Source: an uncultured bacterium
GTDB lineage: Bacteria; Omnitrophota; Omnitrophia; Omnitrophales; CAZLUT01
DNA length: 64,000 nucleotides
NCBI GenBank assembly: GCA_964562805.1
Contig: CAZLUT010000002.1
Coordinates: forward strand, 1,172-65,171
Reading direction: 5' to 3'
The position numbers and the translations under genes are program-made. Below are positions 413 to 32,100 of the stretch, piece by piece (positions within the stretch are counted from its first letter, which is position 1; each line of letters starts with the position of its first letter). Under the pieces are notes generated by a model, which worked only from the letters and a program-made list of their open reading frames with translations, searched no databases and was not told the DNA's origin.

Positions 413-2395
413 CTAGTTATCGTAATAGCTTTTAATGATCTTGCGTAGATTTCTATTTTTAATACCTTCAATTATACGGCGCGGGATTCGCATTTTTTTC
501 TCCTTTTGAATATAAGGAAGAATTTCTTGAATCTCCTCATCAGACGGCCGCCACAACTTATCCTTTTCATCCATCAGAGTTAATTGTGCCAAAACAAGAT
601 CACGCAACACATACTTATTTAGAGGAGAAGCCGAATGAGCCTTCTTCAAATAACGAATAGAAGTTTCGATAAAGATTTGACCGTTGCTCCTTAGTCTGCT
701 GTTTCTAAAATAAGCCTTTCCAATTTTTCGGTAAGTATGGCTTGTTTGAGATAAGTCCAGTATTTTTTGGGCTGAGGCATTAGCAGTCTGAATGGAAATA
801 TTTTTATTGCGCATCTCCTTTGAAAAATTTTTTAACAATAAATTGACACTTGAATCCATATCAAAAAATAAAATATTTTCATTCAAGTTTATTCGCTGAC
901 TGAAAAAATCCCGAAAAACACGTTTTGCGGTCGTAAAAAGCCCAAAAGTCACAATAAAAAAGAGAAGCAAAAAGCTTAAGATGCGCCCTGCAGAAAAATA
1001 AGATAAGCAGCGCGCCTCGGAGGATTTATCTTTGGGTAAGAGTATATGAGTCAGCGAAAAAAAAGAAGCCGCCAAGCCCAGAAAAACAAACATGTGGGGA
1101 GGGGATTTTAAAGCAAAGGTTATCGCACTGTGCAATCCTGCGGTTAACATTCCCCCTAGAACACCCAGCAAAAGAACCCAGCTGTCTAGAGAAATTTCCT
1201 TTCTATTCTTTGTGAGAAAAAAAAGGCGCTTCAAAGCTATCCCTATCGGGACAATAAGCAGGAAAAAGAAACCCAAGAAGCCTGTTTCAAAAAGAAGCTC
1301 AAGATAATCGTTGTGAGCATGGGTAATCCGGGGTCCTGACTTAATTAAAGCTGTTTGATATGCCGGATAAACAGCATAAAAAGTACAGATTCCTGTTCCC
1401 AAAAAAGGACGTTCTTTGATTACGTCTATACTGTCTAAAATAATCGAAGGTCTAAAAAAAAGACGAGCTTCTTCAAATTTACCTTGAGCGGCGCTTAAAG
1501 TATCGAAATAAGAAACGTTTATGCGATTTAAAAAGACGTTTTTCCCAATTAAGTGGGACATGCCGCCAAAAAGGCAGGCTAGAAACAAAAGCGTTACGAT
1601 CAAAATAATTACGGTTTTTTTTGTCTTATTTTTTATCAAAAAAAGGTAAATTAAAGTTATTAAAAGGATCATAATGCCAGCCGAAGCAATAGCCCCTTTT
1701 GAATTTAACCAAACGAGTGCCGCTCCAATAATAATAGTGCCTGCGGTTCCTAAAATAAGAAAGTTTACCGAAAAACGACCCAAAGACCTTCTCTGACTTT
1801 TAAGAGTTATGATAGTTATTAAATTGTGAAGCATTGAAATAAAAGCAAAAGGGAAAATAAGATTCAAGAGAAAGCTGAAATGATTTGGATTGATAAAAAA
1901 TTTAAGATTCTCAATTTTTGGAATGACAGCTATTTTTTGAAAAAAGGCATAAATGGCTGCGGCAGCGATTAGAACGAAAACCCCGTTCATGAAATGATAA
2001 ATATTTTTTTCAGACCTTAATACGTCAAACAAAAGAAAAAAAATAAAAATATTTACCAGCACATAAGGTAGTCGCAGGTAAGTATTATAAGGTACCAAAG
2101 AGGCAAGAGCGCTTAAAAAGCCAATCTTTGAAGCAGCCAGCTGTAAAACGCAGAGGCACAAAAAAATGGCGAGTGAAGTCGAAAGAAAAGGCTCCTTTCG
2201 CGCGGCTTGGTGGAAGGATTTAGTAAAAAAATATCCCAATACCCAAACAAGAAGCAACGTAAGCGCTAAAAAATAAATGAGCAAAGCGTCTCTCGATAAT
2301 ATACCCCAAGAAGAAAGGAGGCTGAAGGTTAAAAGAGGGAAGAAGCCTGCCCAAAGAAGGGTGTAATTAAAACCAGATTTTAAATTAATTTTCAC
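413..2395 (-). CDS. O-antigen ligase/Wzy_C-family polytopic membrane protein (WaaL or Wzy-like) with a C-terminal soluble extension
   Basis: 660 aa with more than 10 hydrophobic helices. It carries the Wzy_C-type motif HAHNDYLELLFETGFLGFFF. The C-terminal roughly 200 aa are hydrophilic. Confidence 0.65.
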   Translation of the reverse strand: MKINLKSGFNYTLLWAGFFPLLTFSLLSSWGILSRDALLIYFLALTLLLVWVLGYFFTKSFHQAARKEPFLSTSLAIFLCLCVLQLAASKIGFLSALASLVPYNTYLRLPYVLVNIFIFFLLFDVLRSEKNIYHFMNGVFVLIAAAAIYAFFQKIAVIPKIENLKFFINPNHFSFLLNLIFPFAFISMLHNLITIITLKSQRRSLGRFSVNFLILGTAGTIIIGAALVWLNSKGAIASAGIMILLITLIYLFLIKNKTKKTVIILIVTLLFLACLFGGMSHLIGKNVFLNRINVSYFDTLSAAQGKFEEARLFFRPSIILDSIDVIKERPFLGTGICTFYAVYPAYQTALIKSGPRITHAHNDYLELLFETGFLGFFFLLIVPIGIALKRLFFLTKNRKEISLDSWVLLLGVLGGMLTAGLHSAITFALKSPPHMFVFLGLAASFFSLTHILLPKDKSSEARCLSYFSAGRILSFLLLFFIVTFGLFTTAKRVFRDFFSQRINLNENILFFDMDSSVNLLLKNFSKEMRNKNISIQTANASAQKILDLSQTSHTYRKIGKAYFRNSRLRSNGQIFIETSIRYLKKAHSASPLNKYVLRDLVLAQLTLMDEKDKLWRPSDEEIQEILPYIQKEKKMRIPRRIIEGIKNRNLRKIIKSYYDN

Positions 2396-2400
2396 AAAAA

Positions 2401-3765
2401 CTAATTTTGATCTAAGACAAAACTGCTGCCTTTTTGACGTTTCGATTTGTTTTTAACGGAACTGATGCGGTTTGTAATTTCACCATAGGAATCAAAGGGT
2501 TTTTCTTCATCGGAAAGAGCCGAAAGGGAAATGGACATGAGAGGAAATTTGGCAAGTTTTTCCCCCTTATCTTCGCCGCCCATTCCTTCAGCCCGTCTTT
2601 CCTTGCCCATAACGTAGCCTTTTGCCCGATCCTCTTTTGAATAGAGCTCTTTCGATTTTTTATCAAATTCGAGAATAAAATGTTCGGAGATTGGTTTGAC
2701 TGTTTTTACTGTCGAGAGAAGAACAAAGTCATCACCACCCTCATGACCCAGAAAATCATCAGCTCCGCCATATTTTTCCACGGCCACCTTAAGAAGTTCC
2801 GCCGTCATCTTAATCGCGATATCACCTGCGCCGATACCATAAGTGTCATTAAAAACTTTGAAATTATCAAGATCCAAATGAACGACAACAAATGTTTTTT
2901 TACTTTGAATTCTTTTTTCGATCTCTTCCCGAATCAGATAATTACCCGGCAATTTTGTTAAGGGGTTAGCATTTTCGGCGATATCTTTCATGCGAGAAAG
3001 TTCTTGAGTCATATCGTTAAAGGTGAGGCTCAATTCTTCTATTTCATCATTGGTCCTAATCCTCACCTGAAGCTTCAGATCGCCCGCAGCAACTTTTTTA
3101 CTTGCCTCATTAAGAGTTAGAATAGGTTTTACAATTTTTCGAGACAAGGCCAAAGTGTGCGTGATCGAAAGAAAAATAATGAGTACCGCCGTGATTATTA
3201 CGGGCACATAAACAGCCTTAAGAGCTTCCTTAAGATTTCCTAAATCATAAGCAGTTTTTAAAACATAAGCGACCTGACGGTCAGCCGTGAGGAGAATCAG
3301 AGTCTCGACGGTGCGGGCCCCCTGGTTGATGAAGGGATATGACCAGGAATCAATCGCATCGAGATCAAAGATATTCTGAATCCTCTCAAAATCGAGGAGA
3401 GAAAGAGGAGGGGGCGCCTGCCCTGCGCTCGAGGCCTCAGCAATAATTTTTCCACTTCGGTCCGCAATATAAATTTCACTTGATGCCTCGGATTCAGTCA
3501 GTTTATTAATGGCCTGCTGGAAATTTTGGATTAATTCTTTTTTGCTCTTTCCTTCATTGATTGCCTGATCAAGCGTGAGCTGCAGATTCTGGTGAATAAT
3601 GACTGACGAAAGTTTGGACCGATATAAATTTTGGTCAGTCGCATTTTGAAGTTGGTTATAAACTTGAATAGCCGTAAAAGACGCGATAATAACCAGCGCA
3701 AAAAGAACCATTAAGTTTATGAGACGAAAATTTAGAGACGAAGTAACGTGATCTTTTTTTCTCAT
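2401..3765 (-). CDS. Membrane-anchored sensor with a periplasmic domain, HAMP and a GGDEF-like domain (GGDDF variant); putative diguanylate cyclase
   Basis: N-terminal TM helix, roughly 150-aa periplasmic region, second TM and a HAMP-like segment. The GGDEF-fold motifs DPLTKLPGNYL, LDLDNFKVFNDTYGIGAGD and HEGGDDFVLL are present. The gene sits 6 bp from the upstream minus-strand gene. Confidence 0.7.
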   Translation of the reverse strand: MRKKDHVTSSLNFRLINLMVLFALVIIASFTAIQVYNQLQNATDQNLYRSKLSSVIIHQNLQLTLDQAINEGKSKKELIQNFQQAINKLTESEASSEIYIADRSGKIIAEASSAGQAPPPLSLLDFERIQNIFDLDAIDSWSYPFINQGARTVETLILLTADRQVAYVLKTAYDLGNLKEALKAVYVPVIITAVLIIFLSITHTLALSRKIVKPILTLNEASKKVAAGDLKLQVRIRTNDEIEELSLTFNDMTQELSRMKDIAENANPLTKLPGNYLIREEIEKRIQSKKTFVVVHLDLDNFKVFNDTYGIGAGDIAIKMTAELLKVAVEKYGGADDFLGHEGGDDFVLLSTVKTVKPISEHFILEFDKKSKELYSKEDRAKGYVMGKERRAEGMGGEDKGEKLAKFPLMSISLSALSDEEKPFDSYGEITNRISSVKNKSKRQKGSSFVLDQN

Positions 3766-3797: not shown

Positions 3798-3813
3798 ATT
3801 ATATTAATATAAT
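3798..3813. promoter_or_regulatory. Perfect 16-nt AT palindrome ATTATATTAATATAAT in a divergent promoter region
   Basis: Read directly from the 115-bp divergent intergenic region between the GGDEF sensor gene and the TPR gene. Confidence 0.25.
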
Positions 3814-3880: not shown

Positions 3881-5830
3881 ATGAAAGTTCGAACTCAAAA
3901 ATTAGCAAGAAACATCTTACAGCCTGTTTTTATTCTCCTTATTTTAGTGGCTTTTTTCGTTTCTTATAATGTTTACTTAGTTGACAATTCGATCGAAACT
4001 TTAAAGTTTTCATTGGAAGAAACCGCGACCGCTCAAAGCCCTATTGCTGCTGAAGGCGTCAGTCTCCTCCTTAGCAATGCTTTGATTTCTGAAACACCTC
4101 AAAAGATAGCTGATTTTAAAACCTTTAATATTTTGGATTTTGCCGCTTCCGTCGCGGGTGAAGCAGATTCCACCAGGCAGCTTAAGAGCGCCGGGTTTGC
4201 GATCGAAGAAGTTTTAGCTGAAAAAGAAAAGAAAAGATTTGTTGTGTTGAGGTGGCTTGATACTGCTAATCGTTATGTGCAGCGATTTTTTTATGCTGTA
4301 AAACAATTTTTTTCGTCCCTTTTCAAAAAGAAACAAACGAAGCCAATCGCCATTGTGAAGCCGGAATTAATGAGGGAAGCCAAGGTTCTTGAGAAAAAAG
4401 GCGACTTTGAGGGTGCTAAAACCGCGTATGAAGAGTTTTTGTTATTAAATGAGAGTGTTGAAGGTATTAGTTTTATGCAGACAAGACTTGCTTTTATTTT
4501 CATGAAATTGGGCAATTATGCTCAGGCAAATGATCTTCTTTCAAAAATTTTAGATTCAGCAGCTAATAAAACAGAAGTTAGAATCGCGGAAAATTTAAAA
4601 GACCAAATTAAAAGAATGGAATCTTTAGCTGGAAAAAGAAATCAGCTCGAAGAAGAAATAAAAACAATAACCAAGGTTGAAGATTTGCAGGAAGCTTATT
4701 TTGAAGTGGGCCGAATGAATACAGAGTTGTATGATTTAAAGAAAGCTCAAGAGGCTTTTAAAAAGACGATTGATCTTGCTCCGGATTCTGAGATTGCCCA
4801 GACAGCGCGTTTTAATCTTGGTTTTGCCTATAAGGTGGCCAATAACATTAAAGCAAGCGAAGAAGTGTTTTTAAAGCTGAGTAAGGGACCGGTTCCGAAC
4901 GTTTTACAGGTAGCCAGCTCGATACAGGTTGCGAGCGTTAAAAAAATAGCAAAGAAGTTCCGAGAAGCCGCTCAAATTTTGGAAACAGTCTCTGCTGAAG
5001 CTGAAGATGTTGTTACCGCGGCGATAGCTCAGTTTGAGGCCGGGTACGTCTATTTGTTCAATTTGAATGATGTGAAAAAAGCCCAGGAGGCTTTTGACCG
5101 TGTTAGCGAGCTTCAAGCCAGGAACCCTAATATGCGACTTCTTGATACCGGTCATGTAGGGGGCGTGGGCCAGTCTGCTTTGAGGGAATATGCGTTTGTT
5201 ATGTTTGAAAAAGGCGACTTCGAAAAAGCAAAAGACGCGTTTGAAACTATTTTGAAAACAGATGAAGATGATTCGTGGTCTTATGCCGGGCTAGGCATGA
5301 TCTATCTTTTAGAAGGAGAGCGGAAAAAAGGGTATGAGATGGCGAACAGGGCCTATACGATCAATCCCGATTACTATACAAGTTCCGCCCTTGCCTATGT
5401 TGAGGAAAAAATAGGCGACCCGGAAAGGGCTATTCAGCTTAATAAAAAATCCATTAAGCTGAATTCGGATTACCTTTATCCTTATTACAATCTCGGTCAT
5501 GTTTATATTGCCGAAAAGAAGTTTAAAGCAGCGGCCGACATACTAAAAAAGGGGAGAAACCTTTCAATTAAGCTGGGGCTCAATTTCCCGCTACTTCCCA
5601 ATAATCTCGGGCTCAGTTACTACCATTTGGGAGAAAACGAAAAAGCCATAGAGATGTTTAACGAAGCTATTAAGTTTGCCCCTACTCTGGCGGACGCGTG
5701 GTATAACCGGGCTCTGACTTATGAAAAAATGGGAGATAAAGATAAATATCTGCGTGACATCAGAGTGGTTTATCGTTTAAACCCAAAATACAAAGATATT
5801 GAGGAAAGAGTTCACAAAAAAGCAGCGTGA
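3881..5830 (+). CDS. TPR-repeat protein with an N-terminal signal-anchor helix
   Basis: AAGGAG ribosome-binding site upstream and an N-terminal hydrophobic helix. Multiple 34-residue TPR-like repeats occur, for example AYFEVGRMNTELYDLKKAQEAFKKTIDLAPD and AWYNRALTYEKMGDKDKYLRDIRVVYRLNPKY. Confidence 0.7.
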   Translation: MKVRTQKLARNILQPVFILLILVAFFVSYNVYLVDNSIETLKFSLEETATAQSPIAAEGVSLLLSNALISETPQKIADFKTFNILDFAASVAGEADSTRQLKSAGFAIEEVLAEKEKKRFVVLRWLDTANRYVQRFFYAVKQFFSSLFKKKQTKPIAIVKPELMREAKVLEKKGDFEGAKTAYEEFLLLNESVEGISFMQTRLAFIFMKLGNYAQANDLLSKILDSAANKTEVRIAENLKDQIKRMESLAGKRNQLEEEIKTITKVEDLQEAYFEVGRMNTELYDLKKAQEAFKKTIDLAPDSEIAQTARFNLGFAYKVANNIKASEEVFLKLSKGPVPNVLQVASSIQVASVKKIAKKFREAAQILETVSAEAEDVVTAAIAQFEAGYVYLFNLNDVKKAQEAFDRVSELQARNPNMRLLDTGHVGGVGQSALREYAFVMFEKGDFEKAKDAFETILKTDEDDSWSYAGLGMIYLLEGERKKGYEMANRAYTINPDYYTSSALAYVEEKIGDPERAIQLNKKSIKLNSDYLYPYYNLGHVYIAEKKFKAAADILKKGRNLSIKLGLNFPLLPNNLGLSYYHLGENEKAIEMFNEAIKFAPTLADAWYNRALTYEKMGDKDKYLRDIRVVYRLNPKYKDIEERVHKKAA

Positions 5831-5907: not shown

Positions 5908-7434
5908 ATGAGACCATTTAAAGATCTAACAGGTATTTTTTGTCTGCTTGTGATTATGTCACTTCTATTTCTTTCTATTCCAAAAAACTCTTTTGCCGGC
6001 GAAGATTTTGATAAATGGGAATTCTCGCGGCTCGCGGCTCTCCATAGCGAGATTGTCCGGGAAGCCGATGCTAAAGCGGCAGAAGCCAAGGAAGCCAAGG
6101 CTAAAGAGGCGAAAGAAAAAGAGGGTCTGCCAAAGGTGTCAGGAGAAGATGCGGCTAAACCAGCGGAGAAGGGCGCCATTCAGGTTAAAGATAGTCAACT
6201 TGACAGGTCCAAGGAGTCTTATTTGGACGAGTTCAAAATAGTAACCAAAAAGAAAAGCTTATTGGAACGGTTGAGCTGGGGCCTTAATTCCTCGATGAAT
6301 TATGATAGCAATGTTTTTAACGAAAAAAAAGGAAGCTCTGATTTGTATTATAAGGCAGGAGCAACCATTGGTATTAACGGTACTGATTTATACAAAGGGT
6401 TAGGATTTCGGCTTAGCTACAACGCGACTTGGAAGCAGTATTTTAAATTTTCCCGCTTAAATCGGCTGAATAATAATATCCTGTTGTCAGTACCAGGAAC
6501 AAATATGCCGCTTAGAATCGGAAAAAAATTGACAGTTACTCTTATACTAGGCATTAACACTAATGCGAGCAATAGCTCCACCAGCCGGAATAATAACTTT
6601 TACACACCTCAATTGAATGTTGAGACAGGGATTCTGGCCGAGTATCTTTTGAGCAAAAAATTTTCAACTACTTTTAAGTGGTCCGGAAGATTTAGACAAA
6701 CTAAGGGCAGAGCCGAGAGCTCTCAGGGGACAGTGGGGATAACTCCCGACGAAAAGGATTATATAATTCAATATCACGATTTTACTCACAGAATACTATA
6801 CCATTTAACTCCTAAAACCTCTGTTTTTGGTGGTTTTGGCTACGGATTTACCAAAAGCAGTGATTCTAGCTCCACTAGCCAAGACACCTTTTATCTCCGG
6901 CCAACGGGCGGCATTATGGGGAGACTGACTCCTAAATCTACTATCAATTTGGCCGCAGGTTGGACAATGCGAAAATTTAAGCTGAACAACAGAACAAGAA
7001 ACAGTTTTTACTTGCAGGCTGCTTATATGGTTGCTCTGACTGAAAAATTATCTGCCACCCTTACGGCGGTTAATGATAGCGATGCTTCAATTCTAAGTAA
7101 TGGCGGATTATTTGGCAGCGCCAGCGTCAAAACGGGGCTACAGTATCGGCTAACTAGAAAGGTGGTATGCTCGCTCAGGAGCGGTATTAGGATGACGCAA
7201 CCTCTTGATGATGATGTGGAAGCAAGCGGTAACGCCACTAATACGGCAGCTGTCCGAGAAGATGCGGGGGACCGTAAAGAATATACTTTTGATGTCGATA
7301 CAAGTATCAGGTATAGTGTATTTAGATGGCTTTCGGTTGGAGCGCATTATAGGTTTGAAGCTCGAAAGGCTGACCGGCCGTCTGGCGGATACGTGTCGCA
7401 TTTGGGGACAATAGATGCTAGAATTAGCGCATGA
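5908..7434 (+). CDS. Putative outer-membrane beta-barrel protein associated with polysaccharide export
   Basis: Signal peptide ending FAGEDF, then a low-complexity AEAKEAKAKEAKEKE linker. The remainder has alternating hydrophobic/polar beta-strand periodicity and sits directly upstream of the wza and wzc homologues. The C-terminus is not aromatic, which is unusual for a barrel. Confidence 0.4.
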   Translation: MRPFKDLTGIFCLLVIMSLLFLSIPKNSFAGEDFDKWEFSRLAALHSEIVREADAKAAEAKEAKAKEAKEKEGLPKVSGEDAAKPAEKGAIQVKDSQLDRSKESYLDEFKIVTKKKSLLERLSWGLNSSMNYDSNVFNEKKGSSDLYYKAGATIGINGTDLYKGLGFRLSYNATWKQYFKFSRLNRLNNNILLSVPGTNMPLRIGKKLTVTLILGINTNASNSSTSRNNNFYTPQLNVETGILAEYLLSKKFSTTFKWSGRFRQTKGRAESSQGTVGITPDEKDYIIQYHDFTHRILYHLTPKTSVFGGFGYGFTKSSDSSSTSQDTFYLRPTGGIMGRLTPKSTINLAAGWTMRKFKLNNRTRNSFYLQAAYMVALTEKLSATLTAVNDSDASILSNGGLFGSASVKTGLQYRLTRKVVCSLRSGIRMTQPLDDDVEASGNATNTAAVREDAGDRKEYTFDVDTSIRYSVFRWLSVGAHYRFEARKADRPSGGYVSHLGTIDARISA

Positions 7435-8141
7435 GGTTTGCTTTGGTTAAAAAAACATTAAAAGTTAACGGATTAATGTCTTTGTTGCTGCTCATGGCGC
7501 TGGCGTTCGCTGTATCAATCTCAGCCCAAATAGATTCTAAAAAGAATGATGCCGATTTATTAAAAACCGGCGAAGAACCCGCCGATTTATCCGAGGAAAA
7601 TTTTTTGGAAATAGATCTCGATATTCAGCCAACTGACGTTCTTGTGGTTGATGTTCATGGTGAATCTAACCTTTCAAAAACAGTAGAGGTTGACAAAAAA
7701 GGCTTTATTAATTATCCGCTTATTGGGCAGGTTAAGGTCGAAGGTTTATCAAAAGAAGAAGCGGAGGATCGGATTCATGCGTTATTTGAGAAAGACTATT
7801 TAGTAAATCCGCTGATCGCAGTCGATAAGGTGGTAAGGCAGAAGGAGGAAGAAGAAGAAGAACCTGCTGATATGTCAACTTATATTATCTTGGGCGAAGT
7901 GAAAAAACCCGGAACATATGAATTTGATCCAGAAGAAGGTAAAATGACTCTTTTAAAAGCTATCTCGATTGCAGGTGGTTTTTCACCTATTGCGAATAAA
8001 GGTAAAATAAAAATGCTTCGTCGTGACGGAGTGGAGACAGAGGCCTTCATTATTAACTTTAAAGACATTGTTAAGGGCGAGCGTCCGGATGAAGAGCTGC
8101 AGAATGAGGATTTGATTGTAGTAGCAGAAAGTTTACTGTAA
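7431..8141 (+). CDS. Polysaccharide export protein (Wza/Poly_export plus SLBB domain, short form)
   Basis: Signal peptide. Poly_export-like motif PLIGQVKVEGLSKEEAEDRI...YLVNP and SLBB-like segment YIILGEVKKPGTYEF...LLKAISIAGGF. ATGA overlap with the upstream gene. Confidence 0.75.
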   Translation: MRFALVKKTLKVNGLMSLLLLMALAFAVSISAQIDSKKNDADLLKTGEEPADLSEENFLEIDLDIQPTDVLVVDVHGESNLSKTVEVDKKGFINYPLIGQVKVEGLSKEEAEDRIHALFEKDYLVNPLIAVDKVVRQKEEEEEEPADMSTYIILGEVKKPGTYEFDPEEGKMTLLKAISIAGGFSPIANKGKIKMLRRDGVETEAFIINFKDIVKGERPDEELQNEDLIVVAESLL

Positions 8142-9974
8142 ATGGGACTAGAGAATATGAGCTACACAGAAGAACAGCATTCCTTAAATATAAAAGAAAT
8201 GTTTTTTGTTTTCTGGCAGCGGAAGTGGTTAATTTTAAATGTTGTAATAATCGCGCTTACCCTTGCTGCAATCTATGCTTATCGTTTACCCGACACATAC
8301 ACGGCTTCAGCAGAGGTTCTTTTGGAAGAAGCGCAGTCCCCCGTTACTAAATCGGACACAGAGGATGTGGCTCATTTGAAGTTTTCTGGGAGGTACCAGG
8401 GATTACATGAAAAACTTCTTGTAAGTCATCCTGTTTTAACAGAGGTTGTTGAGCAGCTAAATCTCCAAAATAAATTTGCTCAATTGTTTAGCGAACAGAC
8501 AGGAAGAACTTTAAAACCGTTGAGCCTTGAGGCTGCTATTCAAAAATTAAAGCAAATGGTAGAAGTAGAATATTCGAAATTGGTCTATATTGTTAGCGCG
8601 ACTACAACTGATCCCTTTTTAGCGGCCACTATCGCCAATACTTTGGTGAAAGTTTATATTAAGCAGTACTTGGAGGGGAGATTGTATTTGTCGAAAGAAG
8701 TGATGGAGCTCTTCCCTGAACAGGCTCAAAGCTTAAAGCGGCATACAGTATCGGAGCAGCTCAAAGACCTTTCAAGAGATGAATTAATTTCAAAATTACC
8801 AACTGTGCAAGCAGACCCATCAGTTAAGGCTTTAGAGCAAAAAAAATATCATCTGGAAAATGAAATAAATAAATTTTCCCAGCGGTACAAAGATAAACAT
8901 CCTAAAATGATTGAGCTAAGAGCCAGCTTGAAATTTCTTAACGAAAGGCTTGAAGCCAGAAAAGGGAGTATCGCTAATAGCTTGAGGGAGAAAATTGTAA
9001 CTAAATTTCAGGCAACAAATGTTAAGGTACTTCGCGAGGCAACAATTCCCAAAGCGCCATCCGGTCCGGATCGAACGCGAGTTATTGTTATAGCCGGTCT
9101 CATAGCTTTGGGCGGGGTCTTGGGGCTGGTATTCTTTCTGAACACGTTGGACGAAAGTGTTAACAGTCAGGATGATATCGAGCGGTTTATCAGGCTTCCT
9201 TTTTTGGGATCGGTACACAAAATTAAGAAAGAAAAATCGCAAGAAAAAAGAACTCTTTACGTGCTTTATGAGCCTATGTCCGAAATAGCTGAAAGCTTTA
9301 AACATTTGAGAATTAATATCAATTTTGCGACGGCACCCGAGCATCGCAGAACTTTGATGGTGACCAGTTCAGTGCCTCAAGAGGGAAAGAGTTTTGTTGC
9401 GGTTAACATGGCCGTTTCAAAAGCTCAAGATGAAAAGAAGGTGCTTTTGGTTGATGCTGACTTAAGACGGCCTAAAATCCATAAATTATTTTCACTGGAA
9501 AACAAGGTTGGGCTAAGTAACGTTTTAACAACCAGCACCCCTTACGAGTCGGTTATTAATAAAACACCACTGCAGTACCTTGATGTTATTACAAGCGGTC
9601 CCGTTTCACCAAATCCGCCCGAAATTTTCAGCTCTCAAGCTATGAAGGATTTCCTAAAAAAAATAGAGGGGAAATATGAGACGATTATTTTTGACACCCC
9701 GCCTGCTTACGGCCTTCCCGATGCTTTGGTTTTGGGGAATCTTATTGATTCTGTTATCTACGTTATTCAAGCTCATAAGACCTCCTATAAACTAATTCGA
9801 AAAACCAAGAATCATTTGATTGATAAAGGGGTAAGAATCGTGGGTACTATTTTAAACTCGCTGGAATCTTCAAAAGATAAATCCTACTATTACGATTACC
9901 AATCATATGGTTATACATACTTCCAAAAAAAAGATAGATCCAAAATCAAAGAAAATCCAACCACATCTAAATAA
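8142..9974 (+). CDS. Wzc-like polysaccharide co-polymerase/tyrosine autokinase (Wzz domain plus BY-kinase)
   Basis: N-terminal TM, Wzz-like periplasmic domain with coiled coil, second TM. C-terminal P-loop SSVPQEGKS, Walker A' VLLVDADLRRP and a Tyr cluster YYYDYQSYGYTYF. Confidence 0.8.
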   Translation: MGLENMSYTEEQHSLNIKEMFFVFWQRKWLILNVVIIALTLAAIYAYRLPDTYTASAEVLLEEAQSPVTKSDTEDVAHLKFSGRYQGLHEKLLVSHPVLTEVVEQLNLQNKFAQLFSEQTGRTLKPLSLEAAIQKLKQMVEVEYSKLVYIVSATTTDPFLAATIANTLVKVYIKQYLEGRLYLSKEVMELFPEQAQSLKRHTVSEQLKDLSRDELISKLPTVQADPSVKALEQKKYHLENEINKFSQRYKDKHPKMIELRASLKFLNERLEARKGSIANSLREKIVTKFQATNVKVLREATIPKAPSGPDRTRVIVIAGLIALGGVLGLVFFLNTLDESVNSQDDIERFIRLPFLGSVHKIKKEKSQEKRTLYVLYEPMSEIAESFKHLRININFATAPEHRRTLMVTSSVPQEGKSFVAVNMAVSKAQDEKKVLLVDADLRRPKIHKLFSLENKVGLSNVLTTSTPYESVINKTPLQYLDVITSGPVSPNPPEIFSSQAMKDFLKKIEGKYETIIFDTPPAYGLPDALVLGNLIDSVIYVIQAHKTSYKLIRKTKNHLIDKGVRIVGTILNSLESSKDKSYYYDYQSYGYTYFQKKDRSKIKENPTTSK

Positions 9975-10089
9975 CCGTTATTTTTTGTATAAATGAGCGT
10001 GTTTTCTTAAAAAGTTTTGTCTGTTTTTAAAAAAAATTATAATCCGTCGCAAAAAAGTTAGTCTGAGTTGATCGAAGGAGGTCTCATTT

Positions 10090-12210: not shown

Positions 12211-12594
12211 ATGGATAATCCAACTAATAAGCGATCAAACGTCCGAATGCTATTTCAAAATCAACTCGAATTTAAAATTTGTTCAATCAATCTCGTCTCA
12301 GAGCTTCATTTGGCAAGTTCGCGAAATATATCACAATCAGGGATGTGTTTTCGGGCCGCCTCGGCGCCCCCTTTGGGAAGTATTATTAAAATTCAGACGG
12401 ATCTTGAAACGCTAGCAAAATGTATTCAAATTGAAAACATGCTATTTGAACTAAAAGGGTGTGTTTTAGGAAAAGTTATTTGGGCTTCACCTGCCAAGGA
12501 AGACGCGTCTCTAACAGATGTGGGAGTAGTCTTTATTAAAACCGGCGAAATAGAAGTCCCCGATGTAAAGGAAGCAGTTTCTTTGGTTGCTTAA
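12211..12594 (+). CDS. Stand-alone PilZ-domain protein (putative c-di-GMP receptor)
   Basis: RxxxR motif KRSNVR and (D/N)xSxxG motif NISQSG with typical spacing. Size 127 aa. Confidence 0.55.
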   Translation: MDNPTNKRSNVRMLFQNQLEFKICSINLVSELHLASSRNISQSGMCFRAASAPPLGSIIKIQTDLETLAKCIQIENMLFELKGCVLGKVIWASPAKEDASLTDVGVVFIKTGEIEVPDVKEAVSLVA

Positions 12595-22399: not shown

Positions 22400-23716
22400 A
22401 TGTCAAAAAAGAAAAAACTTGTTTATGTTCCGATGGCGGTTGATTTTATTCATCCAGGACATTTGAATATTATTAAGGAGGCAGCCGAACTCGGCGAAGT
22501 AGTAGTAGGTCTTTTTACAGACAAAGCGATTGCTTCTTATAAGAGACTGCCTTTTATGAGTTATGACCAGCGAAAAGAAGTTATTGAAAATGTGAAAGGT
22601 GTTGATCGAGTTGTGACGCAAGAAACACCTGATTATGAAGTGAATCTCAGGAAATATAAACCAGACTACATGGTGCATGGTACGGATTGGAAAAAAGGCC
22701 CTCTCAAAGAAGTTCGAGCTAAAGCGATTGATATTTTGGCTGAATGGGGTGGCGAGATGGTTGAGCCTGAGTACACGAAGGGTATCTCTTCCACAGAAGT
22801 GCATGTGCATCTTCGAACGATTGGTACTACACCGCAATTGCGTTTAGCCAAACTTCGCCGTCTTTTGGAAGTAAAAAACATGGTCCGCGTTATGGAGGCT
22901 CATAATGGTTTGAGTGCTTTAATTGCGGAAAAAGCAGAGATTAAAGATCCCGGCAAGCCAATTGCCGCATTTGATGCAATTTGGTTAAGCAGCTTAACAG
23001 AGTCAACCGCCAAAGGTAGGCCGGATATTGAATTGGTCGACCTTTCTTCCCGATCGAAAACTATTAACGATATTTTTGAAGTCACCGTAAAACCGATGAT
23101 CTTTGACGGTGATACGGGAGGTATTCCGGAGCATTTTATTTATACGGTTCGCACGCTTGAACGTCTAGGGGTTTCGGCTGTGGTGATTGAAGATAAGACA
23201 GGCCTGAAAATGAATTCGCTTTTTGGTACTGATGTGAAACAGACTCAGGATTCTATTGAAGCTTTTTGTAATAAGATTTCGCTCGGAAAGAAAGCCCAAA
23301 TCACACCGGATTTTATGATTATTGCTCGAATCGAAAGCTTGATTCTTCAAAAAGGTATGGAAGACGCCCTCAAGCGAGCAGTAGCTTATATTGAGGCGGG
23401 CGCGGATGGTATTATGATTCATAGCCGATCAAAAACACCTGATGAAGTTTTGGCTTTTTGCGCTGAATACAAAAAATTCAAAAAGAAGGTACCGTTAGTA
23501 GTTATTCCGACAACATATGCCCAAGTTTCTGAAAAAGAATTAATTGACGCTGGAGTTAATGTGGTGATTTATGCCAACCATCTTCTTCGCGCAGCATACC
23601 CGGCAATGGTTAAAACGGCAGAATCTATTTTGCATCATGGCCGTTCAATGGAGGCGTCGAACGATTTTTGTATGCCAGTATCTGAGATGCTGGAGATTCT
23701 AGCTAATAAATACTAA
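22400..23716 (+). CDS. pepM: Fusion of a cytidylyltransferase (TagD-like HxGH) and phosphoenolpyruvate mutase
   Basis: N-terminal FIHPGHLNII...GISSTEVH, a TagD-like CTP-transferase pattern. The C-terminal domain has the isocitrate-lyase/PEP-mutase fold with the PEP-mutase-specific motif EDKTGLKMNS (EDKxxxxxNS). Confidence 0.8.
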   Translation: MSKKKKLVYVPMAVDFIHPGHLNIIKEAAELGEVVVGLFTDKAIASYKRLPFMSYDQRKEVIENVKGVDRVVTQETPDYEVNLRKYKPDYMVHGTDWKKGPLKEVRAKAIDILAEWGGEMVEPEYTKGISSTEVHVHLRTIGTTPQLRLAKLRRLLEVKNMVRVMEAHNGLSALIAEKAEIKDPGKPIAAFDAIWLSSLTESTAKGRPDIELVDLSSRSKTINDIFEVTVKPMIFDGDTGGIPEHFIYTVRTLERLGVSAVVIEDKTGLKMNSLFGTDVKQTQDSIEAFCNKISLGKKAQITPDFMIIARIESLILQKGMEDALKRAVAYIEAGADGIMIHSRSKTPDEVLAFCAEYKKFKKKVPLVVIPTTYAQVSEKELIDAGVNVVIYANHLLRAAYPAMVKTAESILHHGRSMEASNDFCMPVSEMLEILANKY

Positions 23717-23741
23717 CGCACCACCTTGTTAGGAAGTTTTT

Positions 23742-24881
23742 GTGTTAAATTGTGCTGATTTTTTTAGGGTCTTAACTCAAAAAGGCGTTCAATTTTATTG
23801 CGGTGTTCCTGATTCTTTGCTCAAATCCTTTTGTGCTTATTTATCTGACGCACTCCCTGAAGATAAAAATATAATTGCCGTTAATGAAGGAGCTGCGGTT
23901 GCGTTGGCTTCCGGAGTTTATATGGCGACAGGACAACCAGCCGTTGTTTATATGCAGAATTCGGGAGAAGGGAATGCAGCGAATCCTCTTCTCTCGCTTG
24001 CCGATTCCAAAGTATACAGTATCCCTATGTTGCTATTAGTGGGATGGCGTGGAGAGCCTGGAGTGAAGGATGAGCCACAGCATATTAAGCAGGGAGAGGT
24101 TACTTTAGCGCTTTTAGATGCGATGGGTATTCGGTATGAGATACTTCCATCTGATGTAAAATTGGCCGAAGCGGCTATCCAGAGAGCTTTTGAATATATG
24201 AATTTGAAGAAAGCTCCTTATGCCCTAATTATTCGTAAGGACACTTTTGAGCCTTACGCTTCTACTGCGACACGCGCCGAAAATAACTACTCACTTAGCC
24301 GTGAAGATGCGATACAAGAAATTATTCAATTTACAAAAAACATGCAAAATCAGCCCGCTTTTGTATCCACTACCGGAATGACTTCTCGAGAACTTTTTGA
24401 AAACCGAGCCAAGAATAGAGAATCGTTAAGCTCTGATTTTCTTACGGTAGGCTCAATGGGTCACGCATCTTCGATTGCCTTAGGACTTGCATTAAATTTA
24501 CCCAATCGGGATGTTTTTTGTGTTGATGGAGATGGTGCTATGCTGATGCATATGGGGAGCTTAGCGACCATTGGCAGCTCCGGTGTTAAGAATTTTAAAC
24601 ATATCCTGATTAATAACGGAGCACATGACTCCGTAGGCGGTCAGCCTACTTGCGGGTTTAAAGTCAATTTCCGAGAGATTGCCAAGGCTTGTGGTTACAC
24701 CAATACTTGGTTAGCAACGAATAAGGATGAATTAAAAGAATGTTTGAAGCAAATGGTTACAAAAGAAGATTTAGAGCTTTTGGAAATTCGAGTAAAAAAA
24801 GGAGCTAGGAAAGATTTGGGTCGCCCCACTTCCTCGCCAGGAGAGAATAAAATTCAATTTATGGAATATTTAAAAGGTTAA
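23742..24881 (+). CDS. ppd: Phosphonopyruvate decarboxylase (TPP-dependent)
   Basis: N-terminal GVQFYCGVPDSLLKSF. TPP-binding motif GDGAMLMHMGSLATIG...NNGAHDSVGGQ. Size roughly 379 aa, immediately downstream of pepM. GTG start. Confidence 0.8.
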   Translation: MLNCADFFRVLTQKGVQFYCGVPDSLLKSFCAYLSDALPEDKNIIAVNEGAAVALASGVYMATGQPAVVYMQNSGEGNAANPLLSLADSKVYSIPMLLLVGWRGEPGVKDEPQHIKQGEVTLALLDAMGIRYEILPSDVKLAEAAIQRAFEYMNLKKAPYALIIRKDTFEPYASTATRAENNYSLSREDAIQEIIQFTKNMQNQPAFVSTTGMTSRELFENRAKNRESLSSDFLTVGSMGHASSIALGLALNLPNRDVFCVDGDGAMLMHMGSLATIGSSGVKNFKHILINNGAHDSVGGQPTCGFKVNFREIAKACGYTNTWLATNKDELKECLKQMVTKEDLELLEIRVKKGARKDLGRPTSSPGENKIQFMEYLKG

Positions 24882-26533: not shown

Positions 26534-27574
26534 GTGAAAAATAAAAAAATAAAATCAATTAACTGCCTTTTTTTGTTGGATGCTGGTCCAGGAATAGGGA
26601 TGGGACACTTGAGGAGATGTCTTGTTTTGGCCGAAAAGCTGAAGCAAAAAGGTGTTAAAAATATATGTTTTGCAACTAAAACGCCGAATGATATTTCAGT
26701 TTTGGTTGGAGCAAAATTCCCAATTATTCATTTGCCTTCTACTGACAGTCTAAAAAATAGAACCGATCTTTTGCAGTCAAAAATAAAAGATTACCGGACA
26801 AAACTTATTATTGTGGATAGTTACAAGATAGCGGTCAATTCACTTCGAGCGATAGAGAAGAGAATAGCACCTGTAATTGTGTTAGATGATTATTTGCACT
26901 TATCTCATTATCCGGTTTCCGGAATTATTAACTACAACCTTGGCGCTGAAAAGCGTACTTATAAATGTGAGTCAGAAACCAGATTGTTTCTTGGAGCGAA
27001 ATACGCCCTTATTTCCGGAGAATTTATCAAAGAAAAAAAGTCAGCTCGGGTTCAAGGGATAGGGCGTCGGTTATTTGTGTCTTTAGGCGCAAATCCAGCG
27101 GGAAGCTTGCTCAAAAAAACGCTTAAAGCGATTGGGAACATAGAAGAAAATCTGAAGATTTCTTTGGTTTTGAGTCCTTGTTATCCGAATAGAGATAAGT
27201 ATAAAAGCGGCAAGGTTTCTCTGGTTGCTCCGAACGCTATCGCCCGGGCAATGAAGCGGTGCGACTTTGCCTTAAGTGCTGCCGGGGTTACAAGTTATGA
27301 GCTTGTATTTATGAGGATTCCAACGCTATTGTTTGTATTAGCTCGGAACCAAAGCCGAGTTGCAGAAGAAATGCAGCGTTGTGGCGCGGCTAAAAATTTA
27401 GGTTGGTTAAAAACTATTTCAACTAGTAAACTAACAGTTGAAATCAGCAATTTTGTGAATAGTAAAATGAAAGTGGCTGGCAAAAAAGTTACTAAGTTTA
27501 ATAAGATTGACGGTAAGGGTTCAGATCGTCTCGCTAGTTTTATTATTTCTGAATATTTGAGGGGGAAAAAGTGA
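26534..27574 (+). CDS. pseG: PseG-like UDP-sugar hydrolase (GT28-like; pseudaminic acid pathway)
   Basis: IGMGHLRRCLVLAEK matches the PseG/SpsG G-x-G-H-x-x-R motif. By-eye alignment with C. jejuni PseG along the length (LIIVDSYKIA, GAKYALISGEF, FVSLGANP). GTG start. Confidence 0.65.
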   Translation: MKNKKIKSINCLFLLDAGPGIGMGHLRRCLVLAEKLKQKGVKNICFATKTPNDISVLVGAKFPIIHLPSTDSLKNRTDLLQSKIKDYRTKLIIVDSYKIAVNSLRAIEKRIAPVIVLDDYLHLSHYPVSGIINYNLGAEKRTYKCESETRLFLGAKYALISGEFIKEKKSARVQGIGRRLFVSLGANPAGSLLKKTLKAIGNIEENLKISLVLSPCYPNRDKYKSGKVSLVAPNAIARAMKRCDFALSAAGVTSYELVFMRIPTLLFVLARNQSRVAEEMQRCGAAKNLGWLKTISTSKLTVEISNFVNSKMKVAGKKVTKFNKIDGKGSDRLASFIISEYLRGKK

Positions 27575-28305
27575 AGATTGTTGCTACTATCGAAGCGAGG
27601 ATGGGTTCCAGCCGGCTTCCTGGAAAGATTCTTAAAAATATTTTGGATAAGCCGACTCTAGAGCTGCTCGTTGAGCGGGTTAGAAAATCAAAGCACATTG
27701 AGCAGGTGGTTGTAGCCACTACGGTTGATCCGAGTGACAACATCACCGAAGAAAATTGCCGCAAGATCGGTATTGATTGTTTCCGAGGAAGCTCCGAAGA
27801 TGTTTTGAATAGAGTGCTTCAAACAGCCAAAGCATATCAGGCTGATTTAATCGTAGAATTAACAGGCGACTGCCCGCTTTTAGATCCAGAAATTATTGAT
27901 AGTGTTATCGAAAAGTATCTTAGCGGTTCATTTGATTATGTAAGCAATGTTTTGGAAAGAACTTATCCGAGAGGCTTGGATACCCAGGTTTTTTCAACGG
28001 CTGTTTTAGAGAAAGTGTCTCAAATCACTCAGGATCCGGCTGACAGAGAAAACGTTTCGCTTTATATCTATGAAAACCCCGAGCAATTTAAGCTAGGGAA
28101 CGTTAAAGCTTCCTCGGAGCATAACAGGCCGGATTTAAGATTAACCGTTGATACGGTTGAGGATTTTAAATTAATTAGTTCGATCTATAATGAGTTGTAT
28201 CCAAAAAACAAAGACTTTAATTTGTCGGATGTGATTAAGCTTTTAAATCAAAAGCCTGAACTCAGCAAGCTTAACGCGGATGTTCAGCAGAAGAAAGCAA
28301 GATGA
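27571..28305 (+). CDS. pseF: CMP-nonulosonic acid synthetase (acylneuraminate cytidylyltransferase family; PseF/SpsF-like)
   Basis: KIVATIEARMGSSRLPGKILKNI and VVVATT. Size 244 aa. GTG start after a GAGGGGGA ribosome-binding site. Confidence 0.7.
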   Translation: MKIVATIEARMGSSRLPGKILKNILDKPTLELLVERVRKSKHIEQVVVATTVDPSDNITEENCRKIGIDCFRGSSEDVLNRVLQTAKAYQADLIVELTGDCPLLDPEIIDSVIEKYLSGSFDYVSNVLERTYPRGLDTQVFSTAVLEKVSQITQDPADRENVSLYIYENPEQFKLGNVKASSEHNRPDLRLTVDTVEDFKLISSIYNELYPKNKDFNLSDVIKLLNQKPELSKLNADVQQKKAR

Positions 28306-29348
28306 GTGGAGTTGATAAAAAATCAAAAAAACTAAGAGCCGGCATCGTTGGATGCGGTCGAATTGCAAGTACGTTTGATTCGGATCCTAAGCGGAAGAAT
28401 ATTGCTACTCATGCCGGTGCTTATACAGCGTCACCTGGTGTTGACTTGGTAGCGGCATGTGATCTCGATGAGAAAAAAGTGGCAGCCTTTGGCGAGCGCT
28501 GGAAGGTTAAAAATTTATATACCAACTTTAATAAAATGCTTAAAAGTGAGAAGTTGGATATTCTAAGTCTCTGCACTTGGGCTGGATCTCACTTTCAATT
28601 GGCAAAAACTGCGATTAATAGCGGCGTAAAAGCGGTGTTTTGTGAGAAGCCTATAACAGTTTCTTTGAGTGAGGCGGATCAGCTGATTAAATTAGCCAAA
28701 CGCAAAAAAGTTGTATTTGCGGTTAATCACTCGAGGAGATGGGATTCAGGTCTTCAAAAAATAAAGTCTGCGATTAATCAGGGTAAGTTGGGTGAAATTC
28801 GCCAGGTGAGCTGTTATTACACTGCTGGCATTTCAAACACTGGAACTCACTTATTTGACTTATTAAATTTTTTCTTTGGTGATGCGAAACAGGTAATTGG
28901 CGCTGTTAGCAATTTAGTTGATAAAAAGGGTGCTGATCCAACTGTTTCAGGATTAATAGAGTATAAGAGCGGAACGTTGGTTTCTGTTCAGGGATTGAAT
29001 GTGAATGATTATTTAATTTTTGAGATAGATATTTATGGCTCGAAAGGAAGGATTCGCATTTGTAATAGCGGTTTTAAATCTCAGGTCTGGAAAGTTTTGC
29101 CAAGTGATTATTTTTCAGGCTACAAAGAGCTTAAAGAGGTAAAGTCATCTTTCGATTTATCCAAAAAAGAACAGATGAAAAACGCCGTCAAAGATATAAT
29201 GCAATGCATAAAAACAAAAAAGAAACCGTCCTCAAGCGCTAAGGATGGCATGAAAGCACTGGAGCTTATTTGCGCCATGAAGCTCTCATGCAAAAAAGGG
29301 ACCAAAGTAGATTTGCCGCTTAAAAATAGAAATATTACAACGGAGTAA
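28302..29348 (+). CDS. Gfo/Idh/MocA-family NAD(P)-dependent sugar oxidoreductase
   Basis: LRAGIVGCGRIAS Rossmann N-terminus and EKP motif CEKPIT. ATGA overlap with the upstream gene. Confidence 0.75.
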   Translation: MSGVDKKSKKLRAGIVGCGRIASTFDSDPKRKNIATHAGAYTASPGVDLVAACDLDEKKVAAFGERWKVKNLYTNFNKMLKSEKLDILSLCTWAGSHFQLAKTAINSGVKAVFCEKPITVSLSEADQLIKLAKRKKVVFAVNHSRRWDSGLQKIKSAINQGKLGEIRQVSCYYTAGISNTGTHLFDLLNFFFGDAKQVIGAVSNLVDKKGADPTVSGLIEYKSGTLVSVQGLNVNDYLIFEIDIYGSKGRIRICNSGFKSQVWKVLPSDYFSGYKELKEVKSSFDLSKKEQMKNAVKDIMQCIKTKKKPSSSAKDGMKALELICAMKLSCKKGTKVDLPLKNRNITTE

Positions 29349-29351
29349 AAG

Positions 29352-31651: not shown

Positions 31652-31750
31652 TTTAACCGACGTCTCTTTGTTGCTGTCGGCTGGTTTTTAGGTAACAGAT
31701 TAATCAAAATCATAAATATATTGGTTTTTAAAGATTTATTTTGATAAGAC

Positions 31751-31790
31751 TTGACTATTATTGACAACTATAAGCTATTTTTGATAAGAT
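31751..31790 (+). promoter_or_regulatory. Second copy of the TTGACTATT(A/T)TTGA promoter box pair upstream of the HTH-pseB sub-operon
   Basis: TTGACTATTATTGACAACTATAAGCTATTTTTGATAAGAT. Its first 13 nt match 21166-21178 at 12 of 13 positions, and the CTATTTTTGAT box is shared. Confidence 0.4.
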
Positions 31791-31839
31791 TTATACGGTC
31801 TCAAAAATAACATAAGAGAATATAGAGGGTTAGTATTAT

Positions 31840-32100
31840 ATGGATGAAATCAAAGAAAATGCTGTTTATACGCCAGCAGAAACTCAAAAAATTTTAAAAA
31901 TCAGTGCAAGCACCATGACTCGCCTCATTAAAAAAGGATTGATTCATGCGGCCAAAATAGGGGGGCAATACCGCATTTTAGGTAAAGAAATTTTAAGAGC
32001 GATGTCGCCAAAATTGGAAGATAAAGTAGGAAAAATATACAACAAAGGCCGGCAATGGGTTCATGAAGACGATGATCCAAACAGAAAGGTCAAAAAATGA
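31840..32100 (+). CDS. Small excisionase-family/MerR-like helix-turn-helix DNA-binding protein
   Basis: TPAETQKILKISASTMTRLIKKGLIHAAKIGGQYRI matches the HTH_17/excisionase pattern. Size 86 aa. Its stop overlaps the pseB start as ATGA. Confidence 0.55.
   Translation: MDEIKENAVYTPAETQKILKISASTMTRLIKKGLIHAAKIGGQYRILGKEILRAMSPKLEDKVGKIYNKGRQWVHEDDDPNRKVKK

Follow-up and report, generated by a model that had tools for sequence, protein, structure and literature searches.

Can a domain of the GGDEF type still make cyclic di-GMP (c-di-GMP) when its signature reads GGDDF, and what would its product then control? The question is raised by a gene on the minus strand (2401-3765) of a 64,000-nucleotide stretch of contig CAZLUT010000002.1 from an uncultured bacterium of the Omnitrophota, a stretch that we call the window. 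Running from ATG to TAG, this open reading frame (ORF) encodes 454 residues that combine a sensor, a HAMP domain and a GGDEF-fold domain with a GGDDF turn. A preliminary description had proposed either an active variant or a degenerate c-di-GMP-binding receptor or regulator, and had suggested from the neighbouring genes that c-di-GMP controls glycan export. With a probability of about 60%, we read the protein as a diguanylate cyclase from a divergent clade that senses the envelope and is free of feedback, and whose c-di-GMP would be read by PilZ proteins of the same gene clusters and would modulate export through the Wzx/Wzy, Wzc and Wza machinery. The gene would then probably switch the export of a surface glycan on or off.

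A membrane sensor with a GGDDF turn

By its architecture and fold, the protein is a membrane sensor of the c-di-GMP-making (GGDEF) type, and database pipelines already label it 'diguanylate cyclase'. From the alignment of the 73 family members, AlphaFold2 gave a model (mean predicted local distance difference test, pLDDT, 88.8) that contains a transmembrane helix, a periplasmic domain, a second transmembrane helix, a HAMP domain and a full GGDEF fold, all encoded on the minus strand. The first transmembrane helix (about residues 14-36, 3658-3726) is the hydrophobic segment RLINLMVLFALVIIASFTAIQVY within a long model helix spanning residues 11-70, and F30, Q34 and Q38 around it are invariant in the family alignment. 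It is followed by a periplasmic alpha/beta sensor of PAS/PDC-like type (about residues 37-184, 3214-3657), modelled as two helices and five strands with pLDDT around 90, and by the second transmembrane helix (about residues 185-206, 3148-3213), the hydrophobic VPVIITAVLIIFLSITHTLAL in a model helix spanning residues 178-226. The HAMP domain (residues 207-257, 2995-3147; Pfam PF00672, 46.7 bits against a cut-off of 25) was found in all 73 aligned members.

The complete GGDEF-fold domain (residues 265-454, 2404-2973), of what we call the H-x-GGDD-F/Y clade, is supported by both Pfam and the model. Assignment of a GGDEF-type domain to this ORF is borne out by Pfam PF00990 (residues 268-355, 53.8 bits against a cut-off of 23.8) and TIGR00254 (50.5 bits against 37.4), and the GGDEF profile is matched by all 73 aligned relatives. 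The fold is intact, as had been described: in Foldseek, the model matches the isolated GGDEF domains 6eib, 3ign and 4zvg with template modelling scores of about 0.66-0.73. A Pfam scan revealed no EAL or HD-GYP domain fused to the protein.

The sensor part has its own relatives. The top Foldseek match of the full model is the WalK sensor kinase model 9a5d, over the sensor and HAMP part, and a WalK/DgcN-like NCBIfam match is sub-threshold. The order of a transmembrane helix, a periplasmic PAS-like domain, a second transmembrane helix, HAMP and GGDEF is also that of YfiN/TpbB/DgcN from Pseudomonas and Escherichia coli, and the NCBIfam DgcN model (NF007423) is among the best full-length matches. 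At 59.8 bits, far under the equivalog cut-off of 325, the protein is rejected as a DgcN/YfiN equivalog, with the architecture alone being shared. Unlike the window protein, YfiN has a canonical GGDEF motif, and no partner of YfiR or YfiB type stood out among the annotated genes nearby.

The catalytic-turn motif HEGGDDF (residues 341-347, 2725-2745) was placed by translation and by alignment to RYGGEEF of PleD, and carries, as first reported, aspartate for the second glutamate and histidine for the usual arginine or tyrosine, H341 standing at PleD R366. Searches of the Protein Data Bank (PDB) with phmmer and with the 73-sequence profile aligned GHEGGDDF onto the G/R-x-GGEEF of SiaD 7e6g, 8c05, 6eib and 3ign. 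With hhalign, DLDNFKAFNDKYGIxxGD pairs with DIDFFKKINDTFGHDIGD of PleD and dDFlGHEGGDDF with IDLPCRYGGEEF; the PleD reference comprised residues 286-454 and was matched to PDB PleD entries, with one difference from the variant chain 9g86 (355.8 bits). In the model, strands 338-343 and 346-351 flank G343-D346, which is the geometry of the beta2-beta3 hairpin. GGDDF falls exactly on the catalytic GGEEF of solved diguanylate cyclases, and a misalignment or another domain family is ruled out by the PDB alignments, the hhalign pairing with PleD and the fold.

The other signatures of the domain were largely read correctly in the preliminary description. DxDxFKxxND is present as DLDNFKVFND (residues 298-307) and SISLS lies at residues 411-415. 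The reported DxLTxLPN was a misreading of the translation, which gives NPLTKLPGN (residues 267-275, 2941-2967), a form of the canonical D-x-LT-G-L-x-N-R that aligns to DPLTGLPNRR of SiaD. The correction is of consequence, for it puts Gly-Asn where the canonical motif has Asn-Arg, and G274 and N275 are both invariant.

Compared with PleD, WspR and the Idiomarina phytochrome diguanylate cyclase, the window protein shares the fold and the residues for Mg2+, phosphate and guanine that correspond to PleD D327, N335, D344, G368, G369 and the acid at the third motif position, and differs at a defined set of positions: D346 for Glu371, H341 for Arg366, E342 for Tyr367 and N275 for Arg300 (PleD numbering). 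The inhibitory site (I-site), whose conservation had been proposed as a check, is absent, since the position of its arginine is G334 and the protein reads GADD in place of the RxxD that stands five residues upstream of GG[D/E]EF. It also carries an extra invariant R390 in a beta-hairpin. After R390, this hairpin holds an insertion of about 10 residues, AEGMGGEDKG (residues 391-400, 2566-2595), which is Gly/acidic-rich and of low pLDDT; besides the window protein, P0004 and P0008, which are its nearest relatives, also have it, and most family members do not.

The substitutions are shared by a large and scarcely characterised clade, which H-x-GGDD-F/Y and L-P-G-N together define. The window protein has more than 996 homologues, and those that are named among the best hits all come from Candidatus Omnitrophota; a search run without any motif filter recovered the exact HEGGDDF in 114 of the 120 best homologues. 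A residue census covered 195 sequences at 30-60% identity, 173 of them from Omnitrophota and 22 from other phyla. Invariant positions in the family include D298, K303, N306, D307 and D315 (PleD D327, K332, N335, D336 and D344) and G343, G344, D345 and D346 (PleD G368, G369, E370 and E371), together with H341, E342, R390, K438, K442 and the G274-N275 pair. The metal-binding aspartate (D298) and the acid at the third motif position (D345) are both in place, as are the guanine-recognition residues N306 and D315 in 195 of 195 sequences. None of the 173 Omnitrophota sequences has R in the column of the I-site arginine, which is occupied by N, G, S, A, D or K; among the 22 other sequences, R is not one of the commonest residues.

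The clade extends well beyond the Omnitrophota. Scanning one genome per GTDB species with two signature peptides gave at least 599 matches, of which at least 586 were confirmed relatives, and full-length relatives also occur in Fibrobacterota, Chitinivibrionales, Spirochaetota and Sericytochromatia. A domain-only query from Sericytochromatia retrieved 2660 proteins at E<=1e-10, and its top 120 all carry H-[IV]-GGDD-[FY]; most of these are 310-residue REC-GGDEF response regulators from Clostridia, Deltaproteobacteria, Elusimicrobiota and Omnitrophota. With the window domain as a phmmer query, 1.84 billion cluster representatives yielded 118 hits at E<=1e-30, a count that rises to 2417 at E<=1e-10. 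Among the 144 new representatives listed, H-x-GGDD-[FY] is found in 141, P-G-N in 111, an aspartate at the base-reading position in 134 and a serine there in one. Protein-search sets such as these can be used to argue for motif conservation, and the loci fetched by motif patterns cannot. Judged from these sequences, GGDDF is a clade signature, and not decay or a one-off change. A full-text search for HEGGDD, HIGGDD, IGGDDF and EGGDDF returned no relevant paper, and the searched literature held no description of the clade signature, its breadth or the coupling of the clade to PilZ, Wza and Wzc in Omnitrophota.

A weak Pfam match to the second palm domain of Cas10/Cmr2 was seen in two of the 73 family members (E 1e-4). 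The palm-2 cyclase of Cas10/Cmr2 has a homologous palm fold and uses GGDD for nucleotide cyclisation, and the weak match fits the GGDD-type catalytic turn shared by these homologous domains. The window protein differs in that its gene has no CRISPR genes around it and the remaining Cas10 domains are missing, and both its best matches and its guanine residues are of the GGDEF type.

Synteny with export genes and PilZ proteins

The gene lies in the midst of genes for glycan export, and both parts of the earlier description of this neighbourhood were confirmed. Five nucleotides past its stop codon, on the same strand, begins (with GTG) the gene of a Wzy_C membrane protein resembling O-antigen ligases and polymerases (413-2395, minus strand; Pfam PF04932, 68.5 bits). 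No terminator was predicted between the two genes, which are probably co-transcribed. On the opposite side and divergently oriented stand four plus-strand genes: a membrane-anchored tetratricopeptide repeat (TPR) protein assigned by TPR families (3881-5830), a putative outer-membrane beta-barrel (5908-7434), a Wza-type polysaccharide export protein (7431-8141; Pfam Poly_export and SLBB) and a Wzc-type chain-length determinant and tyrosine autokinase (8142-9974; Pfam Wzz and AAA_31, and TIGR01007 at 172 bits, above its cut-off). The beta-barrel is called BBP2_2-like from its syntenic homologues, which match PF10082, while the window copy has no Pfam match. A protein with Poly_export and SLBB domains thus adjoins a tyrosine autokinase with a Wzz domain, the arrangement of Wza-Wzc (OPX/PCP-2a) export.

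To see how far this arrangement is kept, the neighbours in the window were compared by tblastn with 60 Omnitrophota species loci, 20 of which have at least 8 kb on both sides of the gene and are called well-flanked below. Of the 60 loci, 32 have a TPR homologue no more than 3 kb from the GGDDF gene, as do 13 of the 20 well-flanked ones; for Wza/Wzc within 10 kb, the counts are 21 and 12. The gene orders are divergent, co-directional or convergent. In the commonest layout (15 loci), the GGDDF gene, TPR and then Wza, Wzc and Wzy_C are co-directional, and the divergent layout of the window recurs in relatives with 62% (L088) and 42% (L004) identity. Wzy_C is part of the homologous clusters. The locus L043 shows the order GGDDF, a small protein with four transmembrane segments, TPR, a 117-residue PilZ protein (Pfam E 5e-11), BBP2_2 beta-barrel, Wza, Wzc and Wzy_C.

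PilZ proteins recur in these clusters. A hidden Markov model (HMM) of the cluster PilZ proteins matched in 16 Omnitrophota loci, and PilZ is present in 15 of the 21 Wza/Wzc clusters. The RxxxR and [D/N]xSxxG motifs are intact in all aligned cluster PilZ proteins, several of which have a C-terminal transmembrane tail, and in L047 a 214-residue PilZ protein (9354-9995) is encoded immediately upstream of the GGDDF gene. The occurrence of PilZ and GGDEF domains in Omnitrophota has been reported previously (bioRxiv 10.1101/2023.11.21.568195); papers that describe PilZ within a Wza-Wzc cluster did not turn up in a full-text search.

A stand-alone PilZ-domain protein of 127 residues is also encoded in the window (12211-12594, plus strand). 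Its gene shares the strand of the exporter genes and comes after Wzc, pepA and folE. The protein scores 23.0 bits with Pfam PF07238, for which the gathering score is 22.5, and is matched by the HMM of the other Omnitrophota cluster PilZ proteins at E 2.7e-6. It carries the motifs RSNVR...NISQSG, with R8, R12, N39, S41 and G44 invariant in five homologues, three of which have a precomputed PilZ match. Its AlphaFold2 model has a pLDDT of 55, too low to establish the six-stranded beta-barrel of PilZ domains, the top Foldseek match is the PilZ protein PP4397 at a non-significant E of 0.15, and its profile found no match in the PDB. This ORF is the candidate c-di-GMP receptor of the locus. The order folE, PilZ, thioredoxin and Wzx is kept in the relative L087. 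Together, synteny in three gene orders and PilZ proteins in the clusters and in the window strengthen, at the level of gene content, the glycan-export link that had been suggested.

Other genes accompany the clade in particular loci. Directly after the GGDDF gene, at least 10 Omnitrophota loci encode a conserved hydrophobic protein of about 135 residues with four transmembrane segments by inspection (L043:1814-2221, plus strand, and L026, L035, L041, L042, L046, L050, L051, L053 and L058); in L035 it is followed by a PilZ protein with a transmembrane segment. It belongs to no Pfam family, and no counterpart was detected in the window. On two unrelated Omnitrophota contigs (L001:11723-19853 and L003:12015-21323), the GGDDF gene stands beside PqqD, several radical S-adenosylmethionine enzymes, a ScmC-like protein, an ATP-binding cassette transporter and NTP_transf_5, a set that looks like a maturation cluster for ribosomally synthesised and post-translationally modified peptides. 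A GGDEF-EAL protein is encoded within a few kb of a GGDDF homologue (L063:155-1603), and HD-GYP genes, of GAF-HD-GYP and HAMP-HD-GYP type, lie near others (L021:3593-4816, L045:5416-6834 and L062:16720-17904). In a scan of the 1.25 Mb of fetched loci, the family member was the only GGDEF-like ORF of each locus. For the REC-GGDDF relatives of Clostridia and Deltaproteobacteria, the genomic context was uninformative.

Catalysis, product and the competing explanations

What the substitutions mean for catalysis can be approached from studied cyclases. The glutamate at the fourth motif position is the general base, acting across the dimer on the 3'-OH; the arginine of the N-R motif, found in 94% of cyclases, stacks on the guanine of the opposite half-site; and an aspartate at the GacA-348 position drives GTP specificity (PMC6456294). 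In the window protein, three changes of the dimer interface occur together and all are invariant: the base is Asp for Glu, Arg366 is His and the stacking Arg300 is Asn. Because this triple change is invariant while the substrate-binding residues that can be mapped are kept, it has the pattern of an active site that was re-tuned rather than decayed. GTP specificity is predicted, because an aspartate stands at the position of PleD D344, and product feedback would be lacking because the RxxD inhibitory site is absent.

There is one precedent for activity. Among GGDDF domains, catalysis has been demonstrated only for that of GSU1937, a transmembrane HAMP-GGDDF 'Hypr' cyclase of Geobacter sulfurreducens: biosensor assays detected cyclic GMP-AMP (cGAMP) and c-di-GMP as its products, and mutation of the motif to GADDF abolished the activity (PMC8835794). 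GGDDF can therefore support catalysis. Like the window protein, GSU1937 has membrane and HAMP input, GGDDF and no EAL or HD-GYP domain; compared by its published description, it differs in its base-reading serine, a position held by aspartate in the window protein and in almost every clade member, and no link to glycan export was reported for it. The metagenomic clade member P0316 shares its published combination of a transmembrane segment, HAMP, a base-reading serine and a GGDDF-type motif (HIGGDDF). With this precedent, the invariance of the substrate and metal residues that can be mapped, and the missing RxxD, the evidence favours the active variant among the two options first proposed.

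Several points weigh against a c-di-GMP-making, export-linked cyclase. Pfam sees just the N-terminal half of the GGDEF domain: the match spans profile positions 5-92 of 161 only, and across all 73 members it is weak and confined to a half-domain (best E 2e-17). The fourth glutamate is regarded as an essential base, and the GGDDF-EAL protein PA3258 was reported as cyclase-inactive, without a cyclase phenotype (PMC8835794). Loss of the cross-dimer arginine is the type of change that shifts the product spectrum of Hypr enzymes. K438 and K442 lie on helix 427-442, and their equivalence to K442 and R446, the phosphate-binding residues on the last helix of PleD, is drawn from topology alone, because sequence comparison gives no usable alignment of the C-terminal half with PleD (hhalign probability 0.3). 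Since motif patterns were used to retrieve the genome loci, part of the motif conservation seen in them is there by construction. On the side of export, 7 of the 20 well-flanked Omnitrophota loci have neither Wza/Wzc nor PilZ within 10 kb, all 23 loci from other phyla lack a Wza/Wzc or PilZ neighbour, and the PilZ match in the window is borderline, with its gene parted from Wzc by pepA and folE.

The counts on export would be expected if the protein were an active diguanylate cyclase that feeds a general c-di-GMP pool and stood beside exporter genes incidentally, an explanation that concerns the regulatory link only. Homologues from Fibrobacterota, Spirochaetota and Sericytochromatia lack such neighbours, and glycan genes are abundant in these small genomes. 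However, the association holds at 33-64% protein identity and through three gene orders, and the spacing is tight, from the 5 nt to Wzy_C in the window to the co-directional GGDDF, small transmembrane protein, TPR and PilZ genes elsewhere. Moreover, the loci counted as lacking the association can still have TPR, Bac_transf, GT4, Wzy and Wzx genes beside the GGDDF gene. We consider incidental adjacency unlikely, although it is the most probable of the alternatives.

Improbable in our view is a catalytically dead domain, which would serve as a sensor-coupled scaffold or nucleotide-binding regulator, hold GTP or c-di-GMP at a remnant site and signal through protein contacts with the glycan machinery. 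The family-invariant aspartate at the fourth position departs from the active-site consensus [G/A/S]G[D/E]E[F/Y], PA3258 would be a parallel case, and the cross-dimer arginine of most cyclases is replaced by the invariant N275. Yet the domain lacks the RxxD I-site that known degenerate GGDEF receptors use, which also disfavours the receptor option of the preliminary description, and it has no partner enzymatic domain. The metal, phosphate and guanine residues that can be mapped and both motif acids are absolutely conserved over several phyla, which argues for an enzyme rather than a relaxed site, and GSU1937 shows that GGDDF can be active.

Still less probable is that the domain is active but chiefly makes something other than c-di-GMP. 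Its altered dimer interface would then lead it to 3',3'-cGAMP, to some other dinucleotide, cyclic or linear, or to a mixed output. The only characterised active GGDDF enzyme makes cGAMP, replacement of the cross-dimer arginine shifts Hypr enzymes towards cGAMP (PMC6456294), the invariant combination of H341, D346 and N275 suggests a re-tuned active site, and P0316 has the Hypr-type serine. Against this stand the PilZ receptors with canonical c-di-GMP motifs that are encoded alongside, and the base-reading aspartate associated with GTP specificity, which is present in 173 of 173 Omnitrophota sequences, 22 of 22 from other phyla, and 119 of 120 and 134 of 144 further clade members.

Three further candidates were rejected: a Hypr cGAMP synthase, for which Ser/Thr is expected at the position of GacA S348 and PleD D344, where the window protein has D315; an allosteric GTP sensor for a partner domain, excluded because no EAL or HD-GYP domain is fused; and an I-site receptor of the PelD or PopA type, unlikely because RxxD is absent.

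The glycan region and a possible circuit in Omnitrophota

Up to about 53 kb, the window is largely one glycan-biosynthesis region, with genes for a GDP-mannose dehydratase, GT2 and GT4 glycosyltransferases, DegT aminotransferases, a phosphoenolpyruvate (PEP) mutase, NeuB and a Wzx flippase (37253-38722). At 22400-24881 (plus strand), a PEP mutase-cytidylyltransferase fusion is followed by a phosphonopyruvate decarboxylase-like enzyme dependent on thiamine pyrophosphate, a pair which suggests that the glycan is decorated with a phosphonate, for example 2-aminoethylphosphonate. What looks like a pathway to a nonulosonic acid, of pseudaminic or legionaminic type, is encoded at 27571-33095 (plus strand) by genes for a CTP_transf_3 cytidylyltransferase, a GFO/IDH oxidoreductase, a DegT aminotransferase, a synthase of the NeuB family and a Polysacc_synt_2 dehydratase.

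Further c-di-GMP genes were sought in the window. No EAL, HD-GYP or further GGDEF domain was found among ORFs of at least 100 residues scanned up to 56.4 kb, nor, with a GGDEF HMM and a scan for EAL and HD-GYP motifs, in any window ORF of at least 50 residues. No c-di-GMP riboswitch or other Rfam family was found in the window, and a scan for sigma-70 promoters and terminators around the gene did not rise above shuffled background. Between the divergent GGDDF and TPR genes lie 115 bp of intergenic DNA with a perfect 16-nt AT palindrome, ATTATATTAATATAAT (3798-3813), which overlaps promoter-like -10 hexamers and may be an operator or a chance occurrence in AT-rich DNA.

In the reading that we prefer, that of a c-di-GMP-making cyclase coupled to export, the periplasmic PAS/PDC-like domain between the two transmembrane helices would take in an envelope signal and the HAMP domain would pass it to the C-terminal GGDEF-fold domain. 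As a dimer, the latter would condense two GTP into c-di-GMP, with no product feedback. Small PilZ proteins from the same clusters, in the window the product of 12211-12594, would read the c-di-GMP and act on the Wzx/Wzy, Wzc and Wza machinery that assembles and exports the surface glycan. Such logic would be like that of YfiN/TpbB/DgcN, from an envelope signal through c-di-GMP to exopolysaccharide.

The cellulose synthase BcsA and the alginate protein Alg44 offer another comparison, since the genes for the polysaccharide machinery are there accompanied by those for a cyclase of its own and a PilZ receptor. The likeness of the Omnitrophota clusters to these systems suggests, by analogy, a post-translational gating by c-di-GMP. 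The systems differ in that BcsA and Alg44 are synthase-dependent, with PilZ fused to the synthase or part of its complex, whereas the Omnitrophota clusters are of the Wzx/Wzy-Wzc-Wza type with a separate small PilZ. Only tentatively, and as an unlikely extension of the preferred reading, could the H-x-GGDD-F/Y, L-P-G-N clade be seen as a mechanistically distinct class of GGDEF cyclases, with a rebuilt cross-dimer geometry, no product inhibition and possibly an altered product or kinetics, which in Omnitrophota would make up, together with a stand-alone PilZ adaptor, a local second-messenger switch gating Wzx/Wzy-Wzc-Wza export post-translationally. If this were true, it would be a post-translational gating by a second messenger not previously described for the Wzx/Wzy pathway.

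Censuses of c-di-GMP enzymes usually score GGDDF domains as degenerate or inactive. If the clade is active, thousands of proteins would be misclassified, among them the REC-GGDEF regulators that are common in Clostridia and, in Omnitrophota, the main cyclase linked to the clusters, and the requirements for glutamate as the base and for the cross-dimer arginine would need revision. For the uncultivated and ultra-small Omnitrophota, the locus offers a concrete circuit leading from an envelope sensor through a cyclase and a PilZ receptor to a Wza/Wzc exporter. It would control a complex surface glycan which, as neighbouring genes suggest, may contain nonulosonic acid and phosphonate, and which probably plays a part when the cells attach to hosts or prey.

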